NCBI GenBank assembly: GCA_043814095.1
Contig: JBDRKI010000008.1
Span: 1 to 16,289, forward strand
Direction: 5' to 3'
Length of the DNA: 16,289 bases
DNA from: Armatimonadota bacterium
Lineage (GTDB): Bacteria > Vulcanimicrobiota > JACPDS01 > JBDRKI01
Shown here piece by piece: positions 3,176 through 16,289 of the stretch; position 1 is the first letter of the stretch; the number at the start of each line of letters is the position of its first letter. The notes beneath the pieces were generated by a model. It did no database searches and was not told the origin of the DNA. It saw only the letters and a program-made list of their open reading frames with translations. A program made the translations under genes and the position numbers.

Positions 3176-4492
3176 TTAAGATTTAGTTTCTTTATTTTTG
3201 CCTTCTTTTAAAGTTAAATCAACGTCTTCCCAGATATTATTGGTAAGATTTTCAACCTGTTCTGGAGTTTGTTTTCCTCCGGATTCTTTTACCTGTTTAG
3301 CAATGTCTTCCTTTAGTTTCTCTTTATTGAATTTTTCAGGGTTAGCATCAAACCATAGTGCTCTCTGAACTACGGTTTTAAGGTATTTTTCTTTAGGCAT
3401 ATCCGTATGGAATTTATCGGCATCGGACAGTTTTTTGCCTGCCTTAATAATTTCAGCGGGGATCTCATATTTTTCAGGATATTCCCACTGATTTTCTACT
3501 GTCCATTCAGGTTTTGGTTTTCCCTCTTCCTTGATTTGCTCCGGGGTAGGCGGTGGTATTAAGTCGGGAGAAAGGCAGTAACCGGGAACTTCCACTACTG
3601 TTACCGGTTCTTTTAATTCTACAGCTACATCTTCACTTATCATCATGGTCTGTACGCCTTCTGTTTCAGGGCATACAGGAGTACCTGACGGGATCTCAAG
3701 AACATATGCATCGGGGGTTGTACGGGTGATTTCCAGAACAAAAACATCACCTGCCGCTATCCCTTTACCTGTAAAATCTATTCTTGCCCTGCCGAATCTT
3801 ACGGCATCACGTATAAGCGCCACACCTCTTGGATCGTAATTTCTAGCGTTTATCTTTCTTTTATTAGCTGCTGTCAGCGCGTCATAATATGTTTTTCTAC
3901 GTCTTCTTATTTCGTCAATCTGAACTTGGCTAAGGCCGGTTTTTGCTGCTTCTTCAAGTTCCTTGTCATAAGCTTCGCACTCATTCATATCCCGGGATTT
4001 ATCACCGTCTATCCATGTGCCGCTTTTAGCCTGGTCAGCATGAACAAATTCATGCAGTTTTGTAGTGCCCAGTAATTCCGCATTTTCAAACGCGTTTTCC
4101 CCGATTTTGACAGTTCCGCTTTTAGATGTTTCCGCTTCTCCTGTAACCCCAAGATCATACTGTGGTTCGCCTTTAACATTAGTGGCATCAGGCTTATAAT
4201 ACTTATCTGCCAGCTCTATTGCTTCCTGACGGGCCTTTTCAAATTTATCAAGCAGGTCAAATGCTTCTTCTCTGAATTTTCTTGCCTTCTCTTTATCATC
4301 CGCTCTATAAGCTTCTCTCATTTTATCGATTTTATCTTTGATATCTTGTTTTAACTGGTTGCCTTCATCAATTTTATCCTGAATTTCTTGTTTCTGTGCA
4401 GCGGTCGGCGCCTGATATGCGTTAGCTACCTGAGGCATGAGTACTGAGAAGAGAAATATTAAACAAATCAGTAAAATTAATTTTCTTTTCAT
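3176..4492 (-). CDS. Secreted protein: coiled-coil N-terminus, HExxH zinc-metallopeptidase-like domain, C-terminal YC...QxAxW domain
   Basis: Signal peptide MKRKLILL...ANA; HEFVH at 4054-4040 with downstream NECEAY (candidate third-ligand Glu); GYCLSP and VQRALW in the C-terminal half; GGAGG RBS. Confidence 0.65.
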   Translation of the reverse strand: MKRKLILLICLIFLFSVLMPQVANAYQAPTAAQKQEIQDKIDEGNQLKQDIKDKIDKMREAYRADDKEKARKFREEAFDLLDKFEKARQEAIELADKYYKPDATNVKGEPQYDLGVTGEAETSKSGTVKIGENAFENAELLGTTKLHEFVHADQAKSGTWIDGDKSRDMNECEAYDKELEEAAKTGLSQVQIDEIRRRRKTYYDALTAANKRKINARNYDPRGVALIRDAVRFGRARIDFTGKGIAAGDVFVLEITRTTPDAYVLEIPSGTPVCPETEGVQTMMISEDVAVELKEPVTVVEVPGYCLSPDLIPPPTPEQIKEEGKPKPEWTVENQWEYPEKYEIPAEIIKAGKKLSDADKFHTDMPKEKYLKTVVQRALWFDANPEKFNKEKLKEDIAKQVKESGGKQTPEQVENLTNNIWEDVDLTLKEGKNKETKS

Positions 4493-10374: not shown

Positions 10375-10875
10375 TTGTCTCCTGAAAAAAGAGAAAGCAG
10401 ATTATCCGATATCTTAAGGTTTTTCGTAAGCATTATAATCTGCCAGCTGGCAGGTATAATAGGGGCTTTTTTCACTTCCGCTTCGGTAAGCTCATGGTAC
10501 GTAACTCTCAATAAGCCTTCTTTTACCCCTCCCGAATGGCTTTTTGCCCCTGTATGGACATCCCTTTATTTTCTTATGAGTATCTCACTTTTTCTTGTAT
10601 GGAGAAAATATAAATGCGAGAAGCAGGCAGGGGAGGCCTTGAAAATATTTATGATCCAGCTTCTTTTAAATATTTTATGGTCTCTTGCATTTTTCGGGAT
10701 GGAAGCACCCCTCAGCGGGTTAGTAATTATAATTATTCTGCTTATCTTCATATTAATTACAATCGTAAAATTCTATAATATATCAAAGTCGGCAGCAATC
10801 CTTCTTATCCCGTATTTCTTATGGGTATGTTATGCATCGGTGCTTAATTTCTATCTCTGGAGGCTCAATATTTGA
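10375..10875 (+). CDS. tspO: TspO/MBR family tryptophan-rich sensory protein
   Basis: WY.TLNKPSFTPP.WLFAPVWT.LY.LM, QL.LN.LWS..FFG, A.LLIPY..WV.YA..LN; AGGAGG RBS before TTG start. Confidence 0.95.
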   Translation: MSPEKRESRLSDILRFFVSIIICQLAGIIGAFFTSASVSSWYVTLNKPSFTPPEWLFAPVWTSLYFLMSISLFLVWRKYKCEKQAGEALKIFMIQLLLNILWSLAFFGMEAPLSGLVIIIILLIFILITIVKFYNISKSAAILLIPYFLWVCYASVLNFYLWRLNI

Positions 10876-11288
10876 GGCTCTGGAGCATACATCCCGGGTA
10901 TCTTTCCGGGCAGCGTCTTACTGCCCTCTGGCGTGAAGCCCTCCTTGCGCAAAAGGTTCTTCAGGGTAAGACAAAAGGTTATAAGAATCATCCCCAGCTT
11001 CTAAGATTTAAAGCACACCCATATCCCTTAAAAGCTATATCGGCTTACCTTATTTATGTACATGAAGAAGCAGAAAAAAGGGGATATAATTTTGATAAAA
11101 GCAAGATAAAAGATACTCCTTCAAAAAGAAAGATACCCGTAACAGACGGACAGCTTAAATATGAATTTAAACATTTATGCATAAAGCTTAAAAAATGTAT
11201 ACCTGCCCGTATTAAAACAGTAAAACAGCATTCTTTTTTTAAAGTTATAAAAGGCGGCATAGAAAAATGGGAAAAGATAAAAAGTTAG
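10872..11288 (+). CDS. Pyrimidine dimer DNA glycosylase / T4 endonuclease V-like protein
   Basis: MRLWSIHP.YL....L.ALWRE.LLAQKVL.G.TKGY.NHPQL.RF, EA..RGYNFD.SKI, VT.GQ..YE..HL. The TTG start overlaps the tspO stop (TTGA). Confidence 0.85.
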   Translation: MRLWSIHPGYLSGQRLTALWREALLAQKVLQGKTKGYKNHPQLLRFKAHPYPLKAISAYLIYVHEEAEKRGYNFDKSKIKDTPSKRKIPVTDGQLKYEFKHLCIKLKKCIPARIKTVKQHSFFKVIKGGIEKWEKIKS

Positions 11289-11719
11289 ATAAATATAACA
11301 GTAAAAGAGATGAGAATATATTTGTTGTCCAGGAACATCACTCTAGTCATCTTCATTATGATTTCCGGCTCCAGATGGAAGGCGTTTTAAAATCATGGGC
11401 GGTACCTAAAGGCATATCCCAAGAACCGTCCATAAGGCGGCTTGCCGTACCTACAGAAGATCACCCTCTCGGGTATGCGAATTTTGAAGGGGCTATCCCT
11501 GAAGGGGAGTACGGAGCAGGTAAGGTCATTATATGGGATAAAGGCACATACGAGAATTTAAATGCAAGACAATCCATTGAAGAATCCTACAAGGCAGGAA
11601 AGCTTGAGGTTTTATTAAAAGGGAAGAAATTAAAAGGCGGATTTGCATTAATCCGCCTTAAAAAAAATCCTAAGGATAAAGAAGCTTCCTGGATTATAAT
11701 AAAGATGAAAAATGATTAA
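11267..11719 (+). CDS. Stand-alone LigD 3'-phosphoesterase (PE) domain protein
   Basis: FVVQEH...HLHYDFRL...GVLKSWAVPKG, RLAV.TEDHP..Y..FEG.IP.GEYGAG.V.IWD.G, G.KL.G.F.L; no ligase or polymerase domain attached. Confidence 0.92.
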   Translation: MGKDKKLDKYNSKRDENIFVVQEHHSSHLHYDFRLQMEGVLKSWAVPKGISQEPSIRRLAVPTEDHPLGYANFEGAIPEGEYGAGKVIIWDKGTYENLNARQSIEESYKAGKLEVLLKGKKLKGGFALIRLKKNPKDKEASWIIIKMKND

Positions 11720-13069
11720 TTATTCTTCATCTTTGCCTTTTCTTATCTGTTCCACTGTTATGGTGCTTGGTTCATAACCCAGCTCAATTGCTTTATCAAG
11801 ATACTTAACTGCTTTATCATGATCTTTTTTCTTGTAATATGATAATGCCATATTGTAATAAACCATTCCGGAAGTAGGATCTAACTTAAGCGCCTTTTTG
11901 TAATATTCAATTGCCTTGTCGTATATTTTATTTGCGGCATAAGCCTTCCCGATATTATTATAAGGGTTCATGTTATCCGGCTGTAATTCAATTACTTTCT
12001 CCCATGCGGCAATTGCTTCTTCATCCATCTGTTTCATGTAATAAGCTATGCCCATGTTATTATATGCTCCGACAAAATAAGGGTTTAAAGCTATTGCCTT
12101 TTTATATAACGCGATAGAGTCATCATAGTTCTCGTTTTCCCTGTAAAGGTTGGCAAGATTATAATAAGGGTCCGCGTATCCGGGATTAACTTCCATGGAT
12201 TTTAAATACATTGCTATGGATTCGTCTTTACGGTCTGTTCTGTGAAAAATCAACCCCAGGTTATTATATGGTTTTGCTAAAAGAGGATCCAGCTCAATTG
12301 CCTTTTTAAGCATCTGTTCGGCTTCGGGCAGTTTCCCCATCTTTATATATACCCCGCCGAGATTATTATACGCTTCTGCGGCTCCGGGATTTATCTGGAT
12401 AGCTTTTTCCCAGTGCAGAACCGCCTCGCCGGTTCTGCCGGTTAAGTGGTAGGAACGTCCCAGGTTAATATGCACATTAGCGTTACCGGGATCTATCTTA
12501 AGAGCTTTTTCAAGGACTTCCAATGCTTTATCGTATTGGCCTGTCTCATGGTAGCCCCATCCCAGCTCATTAAGGTAAGTTATATCATCCGGGTCGAATT
12601 CTACGGCTTTTGCCCATGCTCCGACCGCATCTTTGAGCTTGCCCTGACTCGCGTATACTTCCCCTATATTATAATGGGCAAGGGCGTAATCGGGCTTTAT
12701 CTTAACGGCTTTTTTAAAATATTCCAGAGCTTCGTCATAGAGTTTTGTTCTGTAATAAACCATGCCTGTGTTATTTAATGCAGGTGTATTCTTGGGATCT
12801 ACTTTAAGAACTTTTTTAAACAGGGTAAGCGCTTTGTTTAAGCTTTTATTGTGGTAGTAAGCAAGACCCAGCTGGAACTGCGCTTCTGTATTATCGGGGT
12901 CAAGTTTTACCGCTTTTTCGAGTTCTGTTATCGCCCCTTCATAATTTCCATCGGCGATAAGTTTAATACCCGCTTTAAAACAGTTTTCCGCGCTCTCATC
13001 GGAATAAACCGCAGATGATAAGAATAACGCTAAAATAATAAAAAGAGTTATTATAATATTCTTTTTCAT
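11720..13069 (-). CDS. Secreted tetratricopeptide-repeat protein (about 12 TPRs)
   Basis: Signal peptide, then continuous 34-aa repeats (A/PY.NLG..Y...G..DEA....EKA.E.DP) to the C-terminus; GGAGG RBS. Confidence 0.93.
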   Translation of the reverse strand: MKKNIIITLFIILALFLSSAVYSDESAENCFKAGIKLIADGNYEGAITELEKAVKLDPDNTEAQFQLGLAYYHNKSLNKALTLFKKVLKVDPKNTPALNNTGMVYYRTKLYDEALEYFKKAVKIKPDYALAHYNIGEVYASQGKLKDAVGAWAKAVEFDPDDITYLNELGWGYHETGQYDKALEVLEKALKIDPGNANVHINLGRSYHLTGRTGEAVLHWEKAIQINPGAAEAYNNLGGVYIKMGKLPEAEQMLKKAIELDPLLAKPYNNLGLIFHRTDRKDESIAMYLKSMEVNPGYADPYYNLANLYRENENYDDSIALYKKAIALNPYFVGAYNNMGIAYYMKQMDEEAIAAWEKVIELQPDNMNPYNNIGKAYAANKIYDKAIEYYKKALKLDPTSGMVYYNMALSYYKKKDHDKAVKYLDKAIELGYEPSTITVEQIRKGKDEE

Positions 13070-13200
13070 TTTACCTCCGGAAATATTATTGATAATAAAG
13101 TTTCTTTAAATTAAAATGATGTCCTTTGTATATTTAAGATAGAAATAAAAGCAGGTTTTTTCATCTTTAAAGTGTAAATATACTTAAAGAAAAAGTTGAT

Positions 13201-13323
13201 AACTGCCTTGGCGGTGTTTCAATAACACAGGTTGATGTTTCGTCAACCGGATCAAAATGGTCTTTATAGAATTAGAATGAGATCATACTTACATTGCATG
13301 TAAGTATGATCTGCAAGGCAGTT
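13201..13323 (+). ncRNA. Retron msr-msd non-coding RNA
   Basis: Terminal inverted repeat AACTGCCTTG (13201-13210) / CAAGGCAGTT (13314-13323). Unpaired G13211 lies right after the stem, opposite G13313. msr stem-loops GTGTT/AACAC (13214-13228) and GGTTGATG/CGTCAACC (13230-13248, one G-U). Perfect 15-bp msd hairpin AGATCATACTTACAT-TGC-ATGTAAGTATGATCT (13280-13312). The RT start lies 52 nt downstream. Confidence 0.9.
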
Positions 13324-13325
13324 TA

Positions 13326-13350
13326 CGGGGGCGCGTTTAACGCGCCCCCG
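13326..13350. repeat. GC-rich palindrome/hairpin between retron ncRNA and RT RBS
   Basis: CGGGGGCGCGTT-T-AACGCGCCCCCG: 12-nt arms that are exact reverse complements, with the outer 10 bp all G-C. No U-tract follows on either strand. Confidence 0.85.
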
Positions 13351-13375
13351 CATAAATTAAAATAAGGAGAAATCC

Positions 13376-14248
13376 TTGGGTTTTTTAGATAAACTGCTTA
13401 AAGTTTTTGATAAGGGCAGGGATGCCGATGAGCTTTCCCGGCGGCTCGGCATAACATTTGATGACATTGCATCTGTTACGCCTAAATATTCCACATTTGA
13501 GATTCTCAAGCGCGGCGGCGGGACAAGAAAAATCTTATCTCCTGACAGTAGATTAAAAAAAGTGCAGAGGGTTATACTTCACAGGCTTCTCGGGAGGCTC
13601 CCCGTTCATTCTTCTGCTACGGGTTTTAAGAAAAAATCCTCCATTGTAACCAACACAGTTCCTCATATAAACAAAGAAGTTATTGTCAGGATGGACATAA
13701 AAGATTTTTTCGGTTCTACTCCCTCGGAAAGAGTTGAAAAGTATTTTAAAAAGATCGGATGGAATAAAAAAGTGAGCCGTATTCTTACACATATATGCAC
13801 TTATAACGGCGGCCTGCCTCAGGGAGCTCCCACAAGCCCCGTCTTAAGTAATCTTGTAAATTTCCGTCTGGACGCGAGGTTTTCTAAACTTGCGGAAAAA
13901 TTCAAAGCTTCATACACAAGATATGCCGATGATATTACTTTCTCATTTACGGAAGATAACTCCGTAAAAGTAAGGATGCTGATACAGTACGTCAAAAGTA
14001 TTTTAAAAAACGAAGGATACACCCTTCACCAGAAGAAAAAACTGCATATACGGAGAAAACACCAGCGCCAGATAGTAACGGGACTGGTGGTAAATAAAAA
14101 ACCCAGCCTGCCGCGCAAAACCCGCAGATGGCTGAGGGCTGTGCTGAATAACCATTCTAAGAATAAAAACTGCACTCTTTCACCGAAGCAGATTGAAGGA
14201 TGGCGTTCTTTCTCCGAGATGATAAAAAAAGAAACAAAGTGGATTTAA
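13376..14248 (+). CDS. Retron-type reverse transcriptase (290 aa, no fused effector)
   Basis: I.KRGGGTR.I..P...LK.VQR; region X variant NTVPH (13652-13666; consensus NAxxH); MDIKDFF; LPQGAPTSP.LSN; YTRYADDITFS (YADD 13922-13933); retron region Y VTGLVVN (14075-). AAGGAG RBS at 13364-13369 before TTG. Confidence 0.95.
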   Translation: MGFLDKLLKVFDKGRDADELSRRLGITFDDIASVTPKYSTFEILKRGGGTRKILSPDSRLKKVQRVILHRLLGRLPVHSSATGFKKKSSIVTNTVPHINKEVIVRMDIKDFFGSTPSERVEKYFKKIGWNKKVSRILTHICTYNGGLPQGAPTSPVLSNLVNFRLDARFSKLAEKFKASYTRYADDITFSFTEDNSVKVRMLIQYVKSILKNEGYTLHQKKKLHIRRKHQRQIVTGLVVNKKPSLPRKTRRWLRAVLNNHSKNKNCTLSPKQIEGWRSFSEMIKKETKWI

Positions 14249-14253
14249 AAATT

Positions 14254-15039
14254 ATGAAATACATAAATTGCTTTATCATAATCTTATTAACCGCAGTATT
14301 ATTATCTGCAGGTATATACGCGTCTGATATTAAGATCGATAATACACCTTGGAAAAAGATTGATAATATATGCGCGGTAAAAAAAGTAAAAGTAAAAAGA
14401 GCTTCCGATAACAGTAAATACACCGTCTATTTTATAAGATTTAACCCTAAAAAAACAGAGCTTAAAGTTCTTCCTTCAGATAAATACGGGGACAAGATAA
14501 CCGATGTGAAAACCCTGGCTCAAAAAAGCGGCGCCTTCTGCGTTATAAACGGGGGGTTCTTTGATGAGGATTATAACCCCTTAGGCCTCCTTATAACAGA
14601 AGGAAAGATCTTACAGTATATGCCGGAATACGGCAACTTTGCCGTATTCTGCATTAAATACAATAAGCCCCGGGTGCTGCACAGAAGGGATTTTACCTAT
14701 GACGGGGTTGCCGAAGCCCTGCAGTGCAGTCCGCGCCTTATGTCGGACGGGGTTGATACCTCAGGGGTATGTGATCTTGATAAAGAGAGCAGGAGAAGCG
14801 GAATAGGAATAGATAGTCTCGGGAATATAGTTATATACGCTACAGACGATTCCGTATTCGGTGGGACAAGTTTTACTGACTTAAGAAAGATATTCAGGCT
14901 TTCCGATATAAATTTAAGTTCTGTTTTAAGTTTAGACGGGGGCAAATCAACCCAGCTCTATTTTAATCCGGGCAGGAATAAGATAGATATAAAAGGGTAT
15001 GAGAATATGCCCGTCGGGATAGGCTTTTTTAAGAAATAG
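14254..15039 (+). CDS. Secreted phosphodiester glycosidase family protein (NAGPA/DUF2233-like)
   Basis: Start moved to ATG 14254, which exposes a signal peptide (MKYINCFIIILLTAVLLSAGIYA) 5 nt after the RT stop. Motifs INGGFF, PLGL.I..G, ALQ..P.L, RRSGIGID, LSLDGG.STQL. Confidence 0.82.
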   Translation: MKYINCFIIILLTAVLLSAGIYASDIKIDNTPWKKIDNICAVKKVKVKRASDNSKYTVYFIRFNPKKTELKVLPSDKYGDKITDVKTLAQKSGAFCVINGGFFDEDYNPLGLLITEGKILQYMPEYGNFAVFCIKYNKPRVLHRRDFTYDGVAEALQCSPRLMSDGVDTSGVCDLDKESRRSGIGIDSLGNIVIYATDDSVFGGTSFTDLRKIFRLSDINLSSVLSLDGGKSTQLYFNPGRNKIDIKGYENMPVGIGFFKK

Positions 15040-15124
15040 ATCAAAATAGTTAAAAAATCCTATAAAATAATATATTTTTACACTTCTTTCCGTTATTCCT
15101 ATATATAATATATATGTAAAAAGT

Positions 15125-15204
15125 AAAAAAGTTAACAAATTGTTAACTTTTTTTTAATATTTGTAACAATTTGGCAACAATTTGGCAATATAGCTTTGTT
15201 ACAA
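15125..15204. promoter_or_regulatory. Cluster of inverted and direct repeats, probable regulator-binding region upstream of ORF 15246
   Basis: 14-bp perfect inverted repeat AAAAAAGTTAACAA-A-TTGTTAACTTTTTT (15125-15153); tandem 11-mer AACAATTTGGC x2 (15165-15186); inverted pair TTGTAACAA (15161-15169) / TTGTTACAA (15196-15204). Confidence 0.55.
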
Positions 15205-15245: not shown

Positions 15246-16289
15246 ATGGATATTTTTAAACACATACATAACAGTACAAAGAAAGCAGTTGATAAAGCTT
15301 CTTCCGCGAAGCGGAAAATGTCTTTTGATATTATTGATGATAAGAATTTTGATAAATATATAAACTTAAGTATAGGGACAAAGTTTCTTACCCATCTTAA
15401 AAAGAAAGATCTTACTCTCTGGAAGATCATTGCGAATAACCAGAGAAAATTAAAAGGCCTTAAGGGAAAAGAATCAGCTTATCTTAAAAAGAAAAAAAAT
15501 ACCTTATTCAAAGTATTCAATGAATACCATGCTAAGAACTCAAGCTACGGTACCTATGTCACAACTACAAACTGTTCTAAAATATTAAAATCATCCCTTG
15601 GATATAATTTCTTAAGGATACTCAAGAAAGATTATCCTGTCCTCCATAAAGGATTCATGCAGAAAGGTTATGACGGGATACAGGATAATACCAAAGTATT
15701 CTTCGCGCATCTTTTTAACAGATACTTTAAATCGGGATGTAATAAAATTGAATTAGGACACCAGTCAGAATACATAAAGAAGATGGTATTCTGGGCTAAA
15801 GGTAAGCATATACAAGTTGCTGAAAAGAAAGATACTAAAAAGAAAGTATATGCCAAACCCGTAAATAAGAATATTGATCCGGTCAGGTATGACCCTGATT
15901 ATCTTAAACTGCTTCTATCATCATCTTCAGGATACAATTTCCTTCAAAAACTTAAAGTATCATGTTCTAAGCTCCATAGAGTATATATACAGCAGAATGA
16001 ACCTAAACTTACAAATTTAAAGAAGTTTGATAAAAAAGCTTACAGGTTACTGGCCGGATTATACGGCAGATACCTTAATTCAGGAAAAGTCCCCAAAACA
16101 GCTTACAGAACACCGCAGGAAGAAGAACAAAGAATAGCCTCTTTTGTAAGAAAGAACCTTAAAACACCTGAAGATATAACTAAATGCATAGAAAAGATAG
16201 AGAAGCTTCCTCCGGAAGAAGCTTTTGTTGCTAAAAAAGTGCTTGGCAATATATTCCTTAAAAAATCACTTATGAACAAGAACCCCGAT
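15246..16289 (+). CDS. Lys-rich hypothetical protein with three internal repeats; 3'-truncated by window end
   Basis: Manual translation from ATG 15246 (AGGT upstream) stays open for 348 codons to the window end: MDIFKHIHNSTKKAVDK...LMNKNPD. Absent from the ORF track because it has no stop in the window. Confidence 0.82.
   Translation, partial: MDIFKHIHNSTKKAVDKASSAKRKMSFDIIDDKNFDKYINLSIGTKFLTHLKKKDLTLWKIIANNQRKLKGLKGKESAYLKKKKNTLFKVFNEYHAKNSSYGTYVTTTNCSKILKSSLGYNFLRILKKDYPVLHKGFMQKGYDGIQDNTKVFFAHLFNRYFKSGCNKIELGHQSEYIKKMVFWAKGKHIQVAEKKDTKKKVYAKPVNKNIDPVRYDPDYLKLLLSSSSGYNFLQKLKVSCSKLHRVYIQQNEPKLTNLKKFDKKAYRLLAGLYGRYLNSGKVPKTAYRTPQEEEQRIASFVRKNLKTPEDITKCIEKIEKLPPEEAFVAKKVLGNIFLKKSLMNKNPD

Follow-up and report, generated by a model that had tools for sequence, protein, structure and literature searches.

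The window analyzed here, a 16,289-nucleotide contig (JBDRKI010000008.1) of the Armatimonadota bacterium assembly GCA_043814095.1, carries a compact retron on its forward strand at positions 13201-14248. In most descriptions, retrons are defence systems of three parts that resemble toxin-antitoxin systems. The element in this window is composed of a non-coding RNA (ncRNA) of the msr-msd type and a gene encoding a 290-aa reverse transcriptase (RT), and is probably an (msr-msd)-RT cassette that stands alone and belongs to a distinct compact lineage, inserted among ordinary chromosomal genes, with a gene of the NAGPA family lying downstream by chance. Judged from sequence, the ncRNA and the RT form a conserved two-part module under selection, as indicated by invariant catalytic motifs and compensatory ncRNA pairing. 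No gene is conserved beside the RT across its lineage.

The ncRNA and the reverse transcriptase

The msr-msd ncRNA (13201-13323, + strand) was delimited from its fold and its inverted repeats. The a1 arm (13201-13210) and the a2 arm (13314-13323) form a 10-nt perfect inverted repeat with 100% complementarity. The a2 arm is recovered by both the fold and the family model, in which the a1/a2 helix (helix 1) shows compensatory changes in 6 of 8 pairs. The GG at the 3' end of a1 (13210-13211) contains a candidate branching G for 2'-5' priming, which we take to be the priming site from what is known of other retrons. This GG is invariant in a 14-sequence alignment (A2), and the pair that includes G13210 (columns 13-221) is G-C in every one of the 32 rows of alignment A6. 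Three msr stem-loops (13214-13263) are present in the minimum free energy (MFE) fold. The family consensus includes stem-loops 1 and 2, for which 6/6 and 5/8 pairs, respectively, show compensatory changes, and stem-loop 3 appears in single-sequence folds only. The msd hairpin (13280-13312), the putative template of the multicopy single-stranded DNA (msDNA), is a perfect inverted repeat with a 15-bp stem. In relatives the msd stem is shorter, about 7 bp, and the corresponding helix 4 of the family model shows compensatory changes in 7 of 7 pairs. The whole ncRNA folds at -76.3 kcal/mol, compared with -37.0 +/- 3.7 kcal/mol for 200 shuffled sequences (z = -10.6, 0/200 as good). The initial annotation, made from the sequence of the window alone, had described a complete msr-msd structure, and the 10-nt arms, the 15-bp hairpin and the folding energy all bear this out.

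The regions upstream of related RT genes show the same ncRNA layout, with a strikingly conserved msr. RNAalifold predicted 29 pairs from 14 sequences, 21 of which show compensatory changes, and covariance model R1 was built from this alignment. R1 matches the + strand immediately upstream of the RT gene in 32 of 35 lineage loci; the three misses are L107, where upstream sequence is lacking, L109 and L032. None of the 133 other RT loci was matched, and the window's own genome contains a single R1 copy. In the model alignment of 32 sequences, 97.7% of cells pair and compensatory changes occur in 24 of 29 pairs. None of 500 shuffles equaled the observed pairing, and slid alignments paired at 32-48%.

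The RT gene (13376-14248, + strand) begins with TTG and encodes 290 aa without N- or C-terminal fusion. An AAGGAG motif is visible by eye about 6 nt upstream of the start codon. The N-terminus of the protein aligns with the starts of 290-aa relatives, and the chain terminates after the thumb region. RVT_1 was the sole Pfam domain found (E 7.3e-21), and the top PADLOC matches are, without exception, models of retron RTs. RT_XIII scores highest (295 bits, model positions 134-411 of 469); lower scores were obtained with type XI (250 bits), RT_outgroup (237 bits), type XII (236 bits) and RT_Ec107-like (228 bits). Among solved structures, that of the Ec86 retron RT is nearest by sequence (E 1e-37). 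In an alignment of 43 relatives, YADD (residues 183-186), VTG (residues 234-236) and two residues of region X, N93 and H97, are invariant. Position 94 is T in the window RT and A in at least 90% of relatives. The description of an unfused 290-aa RT with retron motifs therefore stands.

The RT lineage and its gene neighborhoods

The best 120 database matches of the window RT are 278-342 aa long and share 49-62% identity with it at 93-100% query coverage. The closest relatives are P0005 (62% identity) and P0070 (55%). RT loci were fetched, 80 from genomes and 80 from metagenomes. About 30 of them score 208-330 bits, lack a C-terminal extension and come mostly from metagenome-assembled genomes of Planctomycetota and Verrucomicrobiota; the rest score at most 206 bits. 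In a FastTree phylogeny of 163 RT cores, this compact group is one side of a branch with support 87. Together with L111, L032 and L135 it makes up a 33-row clade with support 100 and a stem of 0.45. All 60 rows linked to SWIM or HEAT genes fall in another group, of 107 rows (support 88), which does not include this clade. Cluster representatives at 50% identity include about 80 full-length matches scoring at least about 207 bits. In a larger tree of 305 rows, the lineage comprises 112 rows (support 59), within which a 90-row subclade (support 88) contains the window RT. Based on these sequences, the window RT belongs to a distinct, well-separated and widespread lineage of RTs of about 290 aa.

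Fused and extended RTs also occur in this wider diversity. C-terminal extensions of more than 100 aa were found in 29 cluster representatives; clustering may favor long sequences as representatives. In a basal sister subclade of 22 rows, the RT is fused to trypsin, TIR, CHAT, DUF1266 (two proteins) and EAD5 domains (P0189, P0194, P0177, P0166, P0186 and P0204), and several other extensions, 100-220 aa in length, matched no Pfam family. Two proteins of this basal subclade match the full-length PADLOC models of types XI and XII. Inside the window's own subclade, an 8-row branch carries C-terminal extensions of about 195-330 aa, in four of which HTH_40 was detected (P0154, P0169, P0185 and P0191), and another RT, P0147, has a Bac_DNA_binding (HU/IHF-like) domain. 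These are DNA-binding rather than toxin domains. Locus L109:83-1822 was noted alongside these HTH_40 and HU-like fusions. Three further RTs of the lineage (P0134, P0135 and P0146) have N-terminal extensions of about 425-430 aa without a Pfam match, which may be genuine fusions or reflect wrongly assigned start codons in GC-rich DNA.

To describe the neighborhoods of related RTs, neighboring open reading frames (ORFs) were called in GC-rich DNA by a crude longest-ORF rule. An all-versus-all BLAST of the ORFs within +/-5 kb at 30 close loci revealed no family that is meaningfully shared other than the RT, antisense artefacts aside. The 88 ORFs nearest to the RT at 32 lineage loci were compared by Pfam family, and no family was found in more than one of them. 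These ORFs include housekeeping genes encoding aldolase, UPP synthase, TrkH, MscL and MurB, and only three have PADLOC matches, all of them single. Apart from the RT, the genes of the window gave only four single chance matches near related RTs (DUF389, SDR, carboxylesterase and TPR). ABC transporters (L017, L165) and GFO/IDH/MocA oxidoreductases (L021, L099, L108) were considered as partners and rejected, as they belong to common housekeeping families and differ in distance and orientation. When the 17 window proteins were searched with PADLOC effector models, only TPR-repeat matches and one marginal 2TM match were obtained, and the PADLOC and protein family scans revealed no resemblance to a defence island in the window. 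The lack of a recognizable effector in cis, pointed out in the initial annotation, is true of the whole RT lineage.

The NAGPA/DUF2233-family gene (14254-15039, + strand; 261 aa; PF09992, E 6.6e-18) is a neighbor and not a part of the retron. The RT stop codon ends at 14248 and the NAGPA ATG lies at 14254, leaving a 5-nt gap between two co-oriented genes, and a GC-based scan of the + strand found no terminator-like site from the RT start to the NAGPA stop. This arrangement agrees with the one first described. Other same-strand gaps in the window are 4, 4, 18, 28 and 31 nt, or the genes overlap, and the 5-nt gap is ordinary for such a tightly packed window. A tblastn search with the NAGPA protein matched none of the 173 other RT loci. 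NAGPA homologues of similar size are present in 14 of 30 related genomes, 10 of which have no RT match and four of which carry RT and NAGPA on different contigs. At seven NAGPA loci from related genomes, no window gene other than NAGPA was matched, and no retron-free 'empty site' was seen. The sole related genome with the same gene order is 75% complete and has no RT match. By eye, the N-termini of the NAGPA protein and of the upstream TPR protein look signal-peptide-like, and that of NAGPA appears to be of the Sec type, which would put it out of reach of a cytoplasmic RT-msDNA complex. Public reads from three runs cover small shares of the window and gave five short contigs. Two of these, from one RNA library, are both placed in NAGPA (14643-14793 and 14860-15098), and one DNA-read contig spans the RT stop and the NAGPA start. 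The ncRNA and the RT gene are covered by none of the RNA-library contigs.

Because the RT lineage keeps no fixed partner, NAGPA is almost certainly a host gene that lies downstream of the retron by chance. The initial annotation had named chance adjacency as one option, and the evidence favors it (0/173 loci; no recurring neighbor family). The competing suggestion of a new retron type tied to an exported, envelope-acting enzyme finds no support in the same loci, in the 88 neighbors, in the 14 of 30 genomes that carry NAGPA or in the ordinary gap.

Flanking signals and other genes of the window

Two sigma-70-like matches (10/12 and 9/12 positions) mark uncertain promoter-like sites upstream of the ncRNA (13089-13134, + strand). 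In 18 of 31 relatives' loci (L015-L021, L023, L025, L096-L100, L102-L104 and L110), a TTGAC -35 element is located 38-42 nt before a conserved CTTGG. With this fixed spacing, transcription in the relatives would start at the 5' end of a1. The window, which is AT-rich, has no TTGAC at the 38-42 nt spacing. A GC-rich hairpin lies between a2 and the RT gene (13326-13350, + strand), where the MFE fold has 11 pairs and the sequence a 12-nt perfect inverted repeat. When a crude rule was applied (at least 8 pairs, starting no more than 6 nt from a2), such a hairpin was found for 27 of 32 ncRNAs, the folds of three of these 27 being loose. A T-rich tail (at least 5 T in the next 10 nt) follows this hairpin in 9 of the 27, the window not being among them. 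Downstream of NAGPA, an AT-rich perfect palindrome (15129-15155) whose 10-nt arms flank a single base has a run of A before it and a run of T after it. This palindrome was seen by eye and missed by the GC-based scan, and could be a bidirectional terminator after NAGPA.

The window represents one whole contig of a 2.5-Mb genome in 129 contigs, which is 99% complete. The cassette has a G+C content of about 0.40, and its flanks range from 0.33 to 0.45. A recent acquisition of the cassette was rejected, since its composition matches that of the flanks; on this compositional basis the cassette is regarded as long resident at the site. The divergent gene upstream (11720-13069, - strand) encodes a TPR protein with 11 repeats. 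Just upstream of it, an overlapping co-oriented gene pair (10872-11719) encodes a pyrimidine-dimer DNA glycosylase (Pyr_excise) and a stand-alone LigD 3'-phosphoesterase domain, and looks like a small DNA-repair pair. A 438-aa protein without a Pfam family (3176-4492, - strand), encoded 9 kb away from the retron, marginally matches the 2TM 'Effector' model of PADLOC (E 9.3e-5, 20 bits), probably by chance. The frame at 15246-16289 (at least 348 aa) has no Pfam, PADLOC or usable Protein Atlas match, and no match to it was found near related RTs. An Rfam scan of the whole window returned no family at the gathering score. Elsewhere in the same genome, a second RT (G000:C38:628-1248, locus L184; RVT_1 146 bits) in a 358-aa open frame is unrelated to the retron RT.

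Comparison with known systems and possible function

Type XIII retrons correspond to Mestre clade 10, with Mx162, Mx65 and Ne144 listed as examples in Table 1 of the SPIRE survey (PMC13712802). Among the PADLOC RT models, RT_XIII gives the top score with the window RT and with 9 of 10 other members of its lineage that were tested, and type XIII retrons likewise have the ncRNA upstream of the RT. Unlike type XIII, however, the window RT lacks an N-terminal extension of about 130 aa; RT ORFs linked to SWIM or HEAT genes carry N-terminal extensions of roughly 100-300 aa. Type XIII partners were found at other loci (SWIM cluster 51; HEAT clusters 37 and 10), with their Pfam assignments confirmed, whereas a SWIM/winged-helix (cluster 114) or HEAT/ARM partner is absent from the window and from the lineage loci. 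Searched across the window's own genome, a SWIM profile derived from 24 proteins gave no match, this genome-wide search being limited to SWIM. The window RT also falls in a separate clade, and R1 matches no type XIII locus. As to membership in type XIII, the best hidden Markov model is RT_XIII, yet our tree of 163 RT cores puts the RT in a separate clade (support 100), outside the SWIM/HEAT clade. The initial annotation had considered that related RTs might sit beside a known effector that was simply lost here. This does not hold in the close lineage, but it does one step out, where type XIII RTs have SWIM or HEAT partners.

Stand-alone (msr-msd)-RT cassettes have been described in the Ec107-like branch of clade 2 and in clade 11, and the portions of that work covered here leave open whether they act through an effector in trans or have another function (Mestre 2020; PMC7736814). 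The covered part of the 2026 SPIRE survey likewise lists Ec107-like and clade 11 groups without accessory modules (PMC13712802). According to these parts of the two papers, the known cassettes share with the window an ncRNA and an RT without a recurrent accessory gene, and their hosts are Actinobacteria, Bacillota and Gammaproteobacteria, in contrast to Planctomycetota and Verrucomicrobiota here. We take RT_outgroup to represent clade 11, because OutgroupA and OutgroupB are the names that SPIRE, in the part covered, gives to the ncRNA models of this clade. The RT_outgroup (237 bits) and Ec107-like (228 bits) scores are below that of RT_XIII (295 bits). By these PADLOC model scores, the window RT is probably in neither group. 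As stand-alone retron cassettes are already in print (PMC7736814, in the part covered), the novelty first attached to an effector-less retron was overrated. What the window adds is an example from a distinct compact lineage.

Types XI (RT-protease) and XII (RT-TIR), both single-gene retrons, resemble the lineage in that its basal sister subclade has RT-trypsin and RT-TIR proteins matching the full-length models. The window RT differs in having no C-terminal protease or TIR domain. DRT9 (PMC12489045) and DRT2 (PMC12596737), two of the DRT (defence-associated reverse transcriptase) systems, are presented in the covered parts of these papers as two-component defence systems of an RT and an ncRNA, and thus share with the cassette the restriction to these two parts. 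They differ in using an RT of the UG/Abi class, another priming mode and another product; the likeness is architectural, with homology tested by RVT_1 only.

A model of how the cassette may work can be proposed by analogy with characterized retrons. The ncRNA would be transcribed from its own promoter, after which the a1 and a2 arms would pair and the RT would bind the conserved msr stem-loops. The invariant G that ends a1 (13210/13211) may supply the 2'-OH from which the RT primes. Copying of the msd region from about 13313 back to about 13255 would yield a branched msDNA some 55-65 nt long that contains a 15-bp hairpin. As for the GC-rich hairpin after a2, it may act as a leaky terminator or as a stabilizer of the ncRNA 3' end. 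By limiting read-through or by protecting that end, we propose, it would keep the ncRNA in excess over the RT mRNA. Tentatively, and with somewhat less than even confidence, we suggest that the cassette serves as a conflict or anti-phage sensor, with the RT-msDNA itself or a factor not encoded adjacently as the route of its output. The patchy distribution over several phyla and the fusions to TIR, CHAT, trypsin and EAD5 domains on sister branches favor a role in conflict or defence via an unlinked factor.

Other explanations have to be weighed against this one. The cassette might be a self-sufficient two-component system without a dedicated protein effector, in which the msDNA or a triggered RT product acts on phage or regulates the host in a DRT-like manner. 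The two-part module is kept across the lineage without a conserved neighbor, in housekeeping neighborhoods rather than defence islands (PADLOC matches for 3 of 88 ORFs), and some branches within the lineage have the RT fused to DNA-binding domains (HTH_40 in four, HU in one) and not to toxins. DRT9 and DRT2, as reported in the covered parts of PMC12489045 and PMC12596737, set a precedent for defence by an RT and an ncRNA. Nevertheless, no retron has been shown to act in this way in the parts of the literature covered, the msd is short (7-15 bp hairpin) and has no coding potential, and the toxic effector domains on sister branches point to an effector-dependent ancestry. We therefore consider the self-sufficient system unlikely, though it deserves more weight than either of the following two explanations. 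That the cassette is a non-functional remnant of a type XIII or XI/XII-like retron after effector loss would be in keeping with type XIII as the nearest RT model, with the fused effectors on sister branches and with the SWIM/HEAT partners in the next RT clade. However, the stand-alone state is common to dozens of members at about 45-55% RT identity, the RT catalytic motifs are intact, compensatory changes maintain the ncRNA pairing, and 32 of 35 loci keep the ncRNA directly upstream of the RT. Together these features argue for selection on the two-part module instead of decay and make a remnant very improbable. Least credible of all is a role of NAGPA as an exported retron effector, specific to the lineage and transcribed together with the RT. 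The 5-nt gap, the co-orientation and the absence of a terminator-like site between the genes would fit such a role, but the linkage is unique to the window (0/173 other RT loci), no Pfam family recurs in the 88 neighbors, NAGPA homologues in 14 of 30 genomes occur without an RT match (10) or unlinked from it (4), close spacing is normal in the window, and the Sec-type N-terminus, as seen by eye, would separate the protein from cytoplasmic RT-msDNA. We regard this role as extremely unlikely.

Several points weigh against a stand-alone cassette with a chance neighbor. The small gap and the lack of a terminator-like site make co-transcription of RT and NAGPA possible. The contig ends at 16289, inside the ORF at 15246-16289 and 1.25 kb past NAGPA; a partner farther downstream lies outside the view, as ORFs shorter than 80 aa lie outside the scan. 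Small genes near related RTs could be missed by the longest-ORF rule, and the neighborhood counts do not extend to the genomic context of the closest relatives, P0005 and P0070. Both RT trees were built with FastTree only, and support for the node of the whole lineage is only 59 in the larger tree. The pair counts of the 32-sequence alignment are also favored toward pairing, because that alignment was fitted to R1. A stand-alone cassette of the compact lineage nonetheless remains the probable interpretation.

The analysis removes the tempting idea of a retron that controls an exported glycosidase. Effector-less cassettes are known, but carry no assigned function in the portions of the literature covered. 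The window provides a clean minimal example from a large lineage, in which the ncRNA, the promoter position and the terminator-like hairpin recur, and its relatives reveal possible attachments to the same RT core (TIR, CHAT, trypsin, DUF1266, EAD5, HTH_40 and HU). With the ncRNA and the RT together spanning about 1.05 kb, the function of an orphan retron becomes directly testable. If true, a self-sufficient RT-msDNA would explain why dozens of diverged members retain just two parts in housekeeping neighborhoods, and the compact lineage would be the retron counterpart of the DRT systems built from an RT and an ncRNA.

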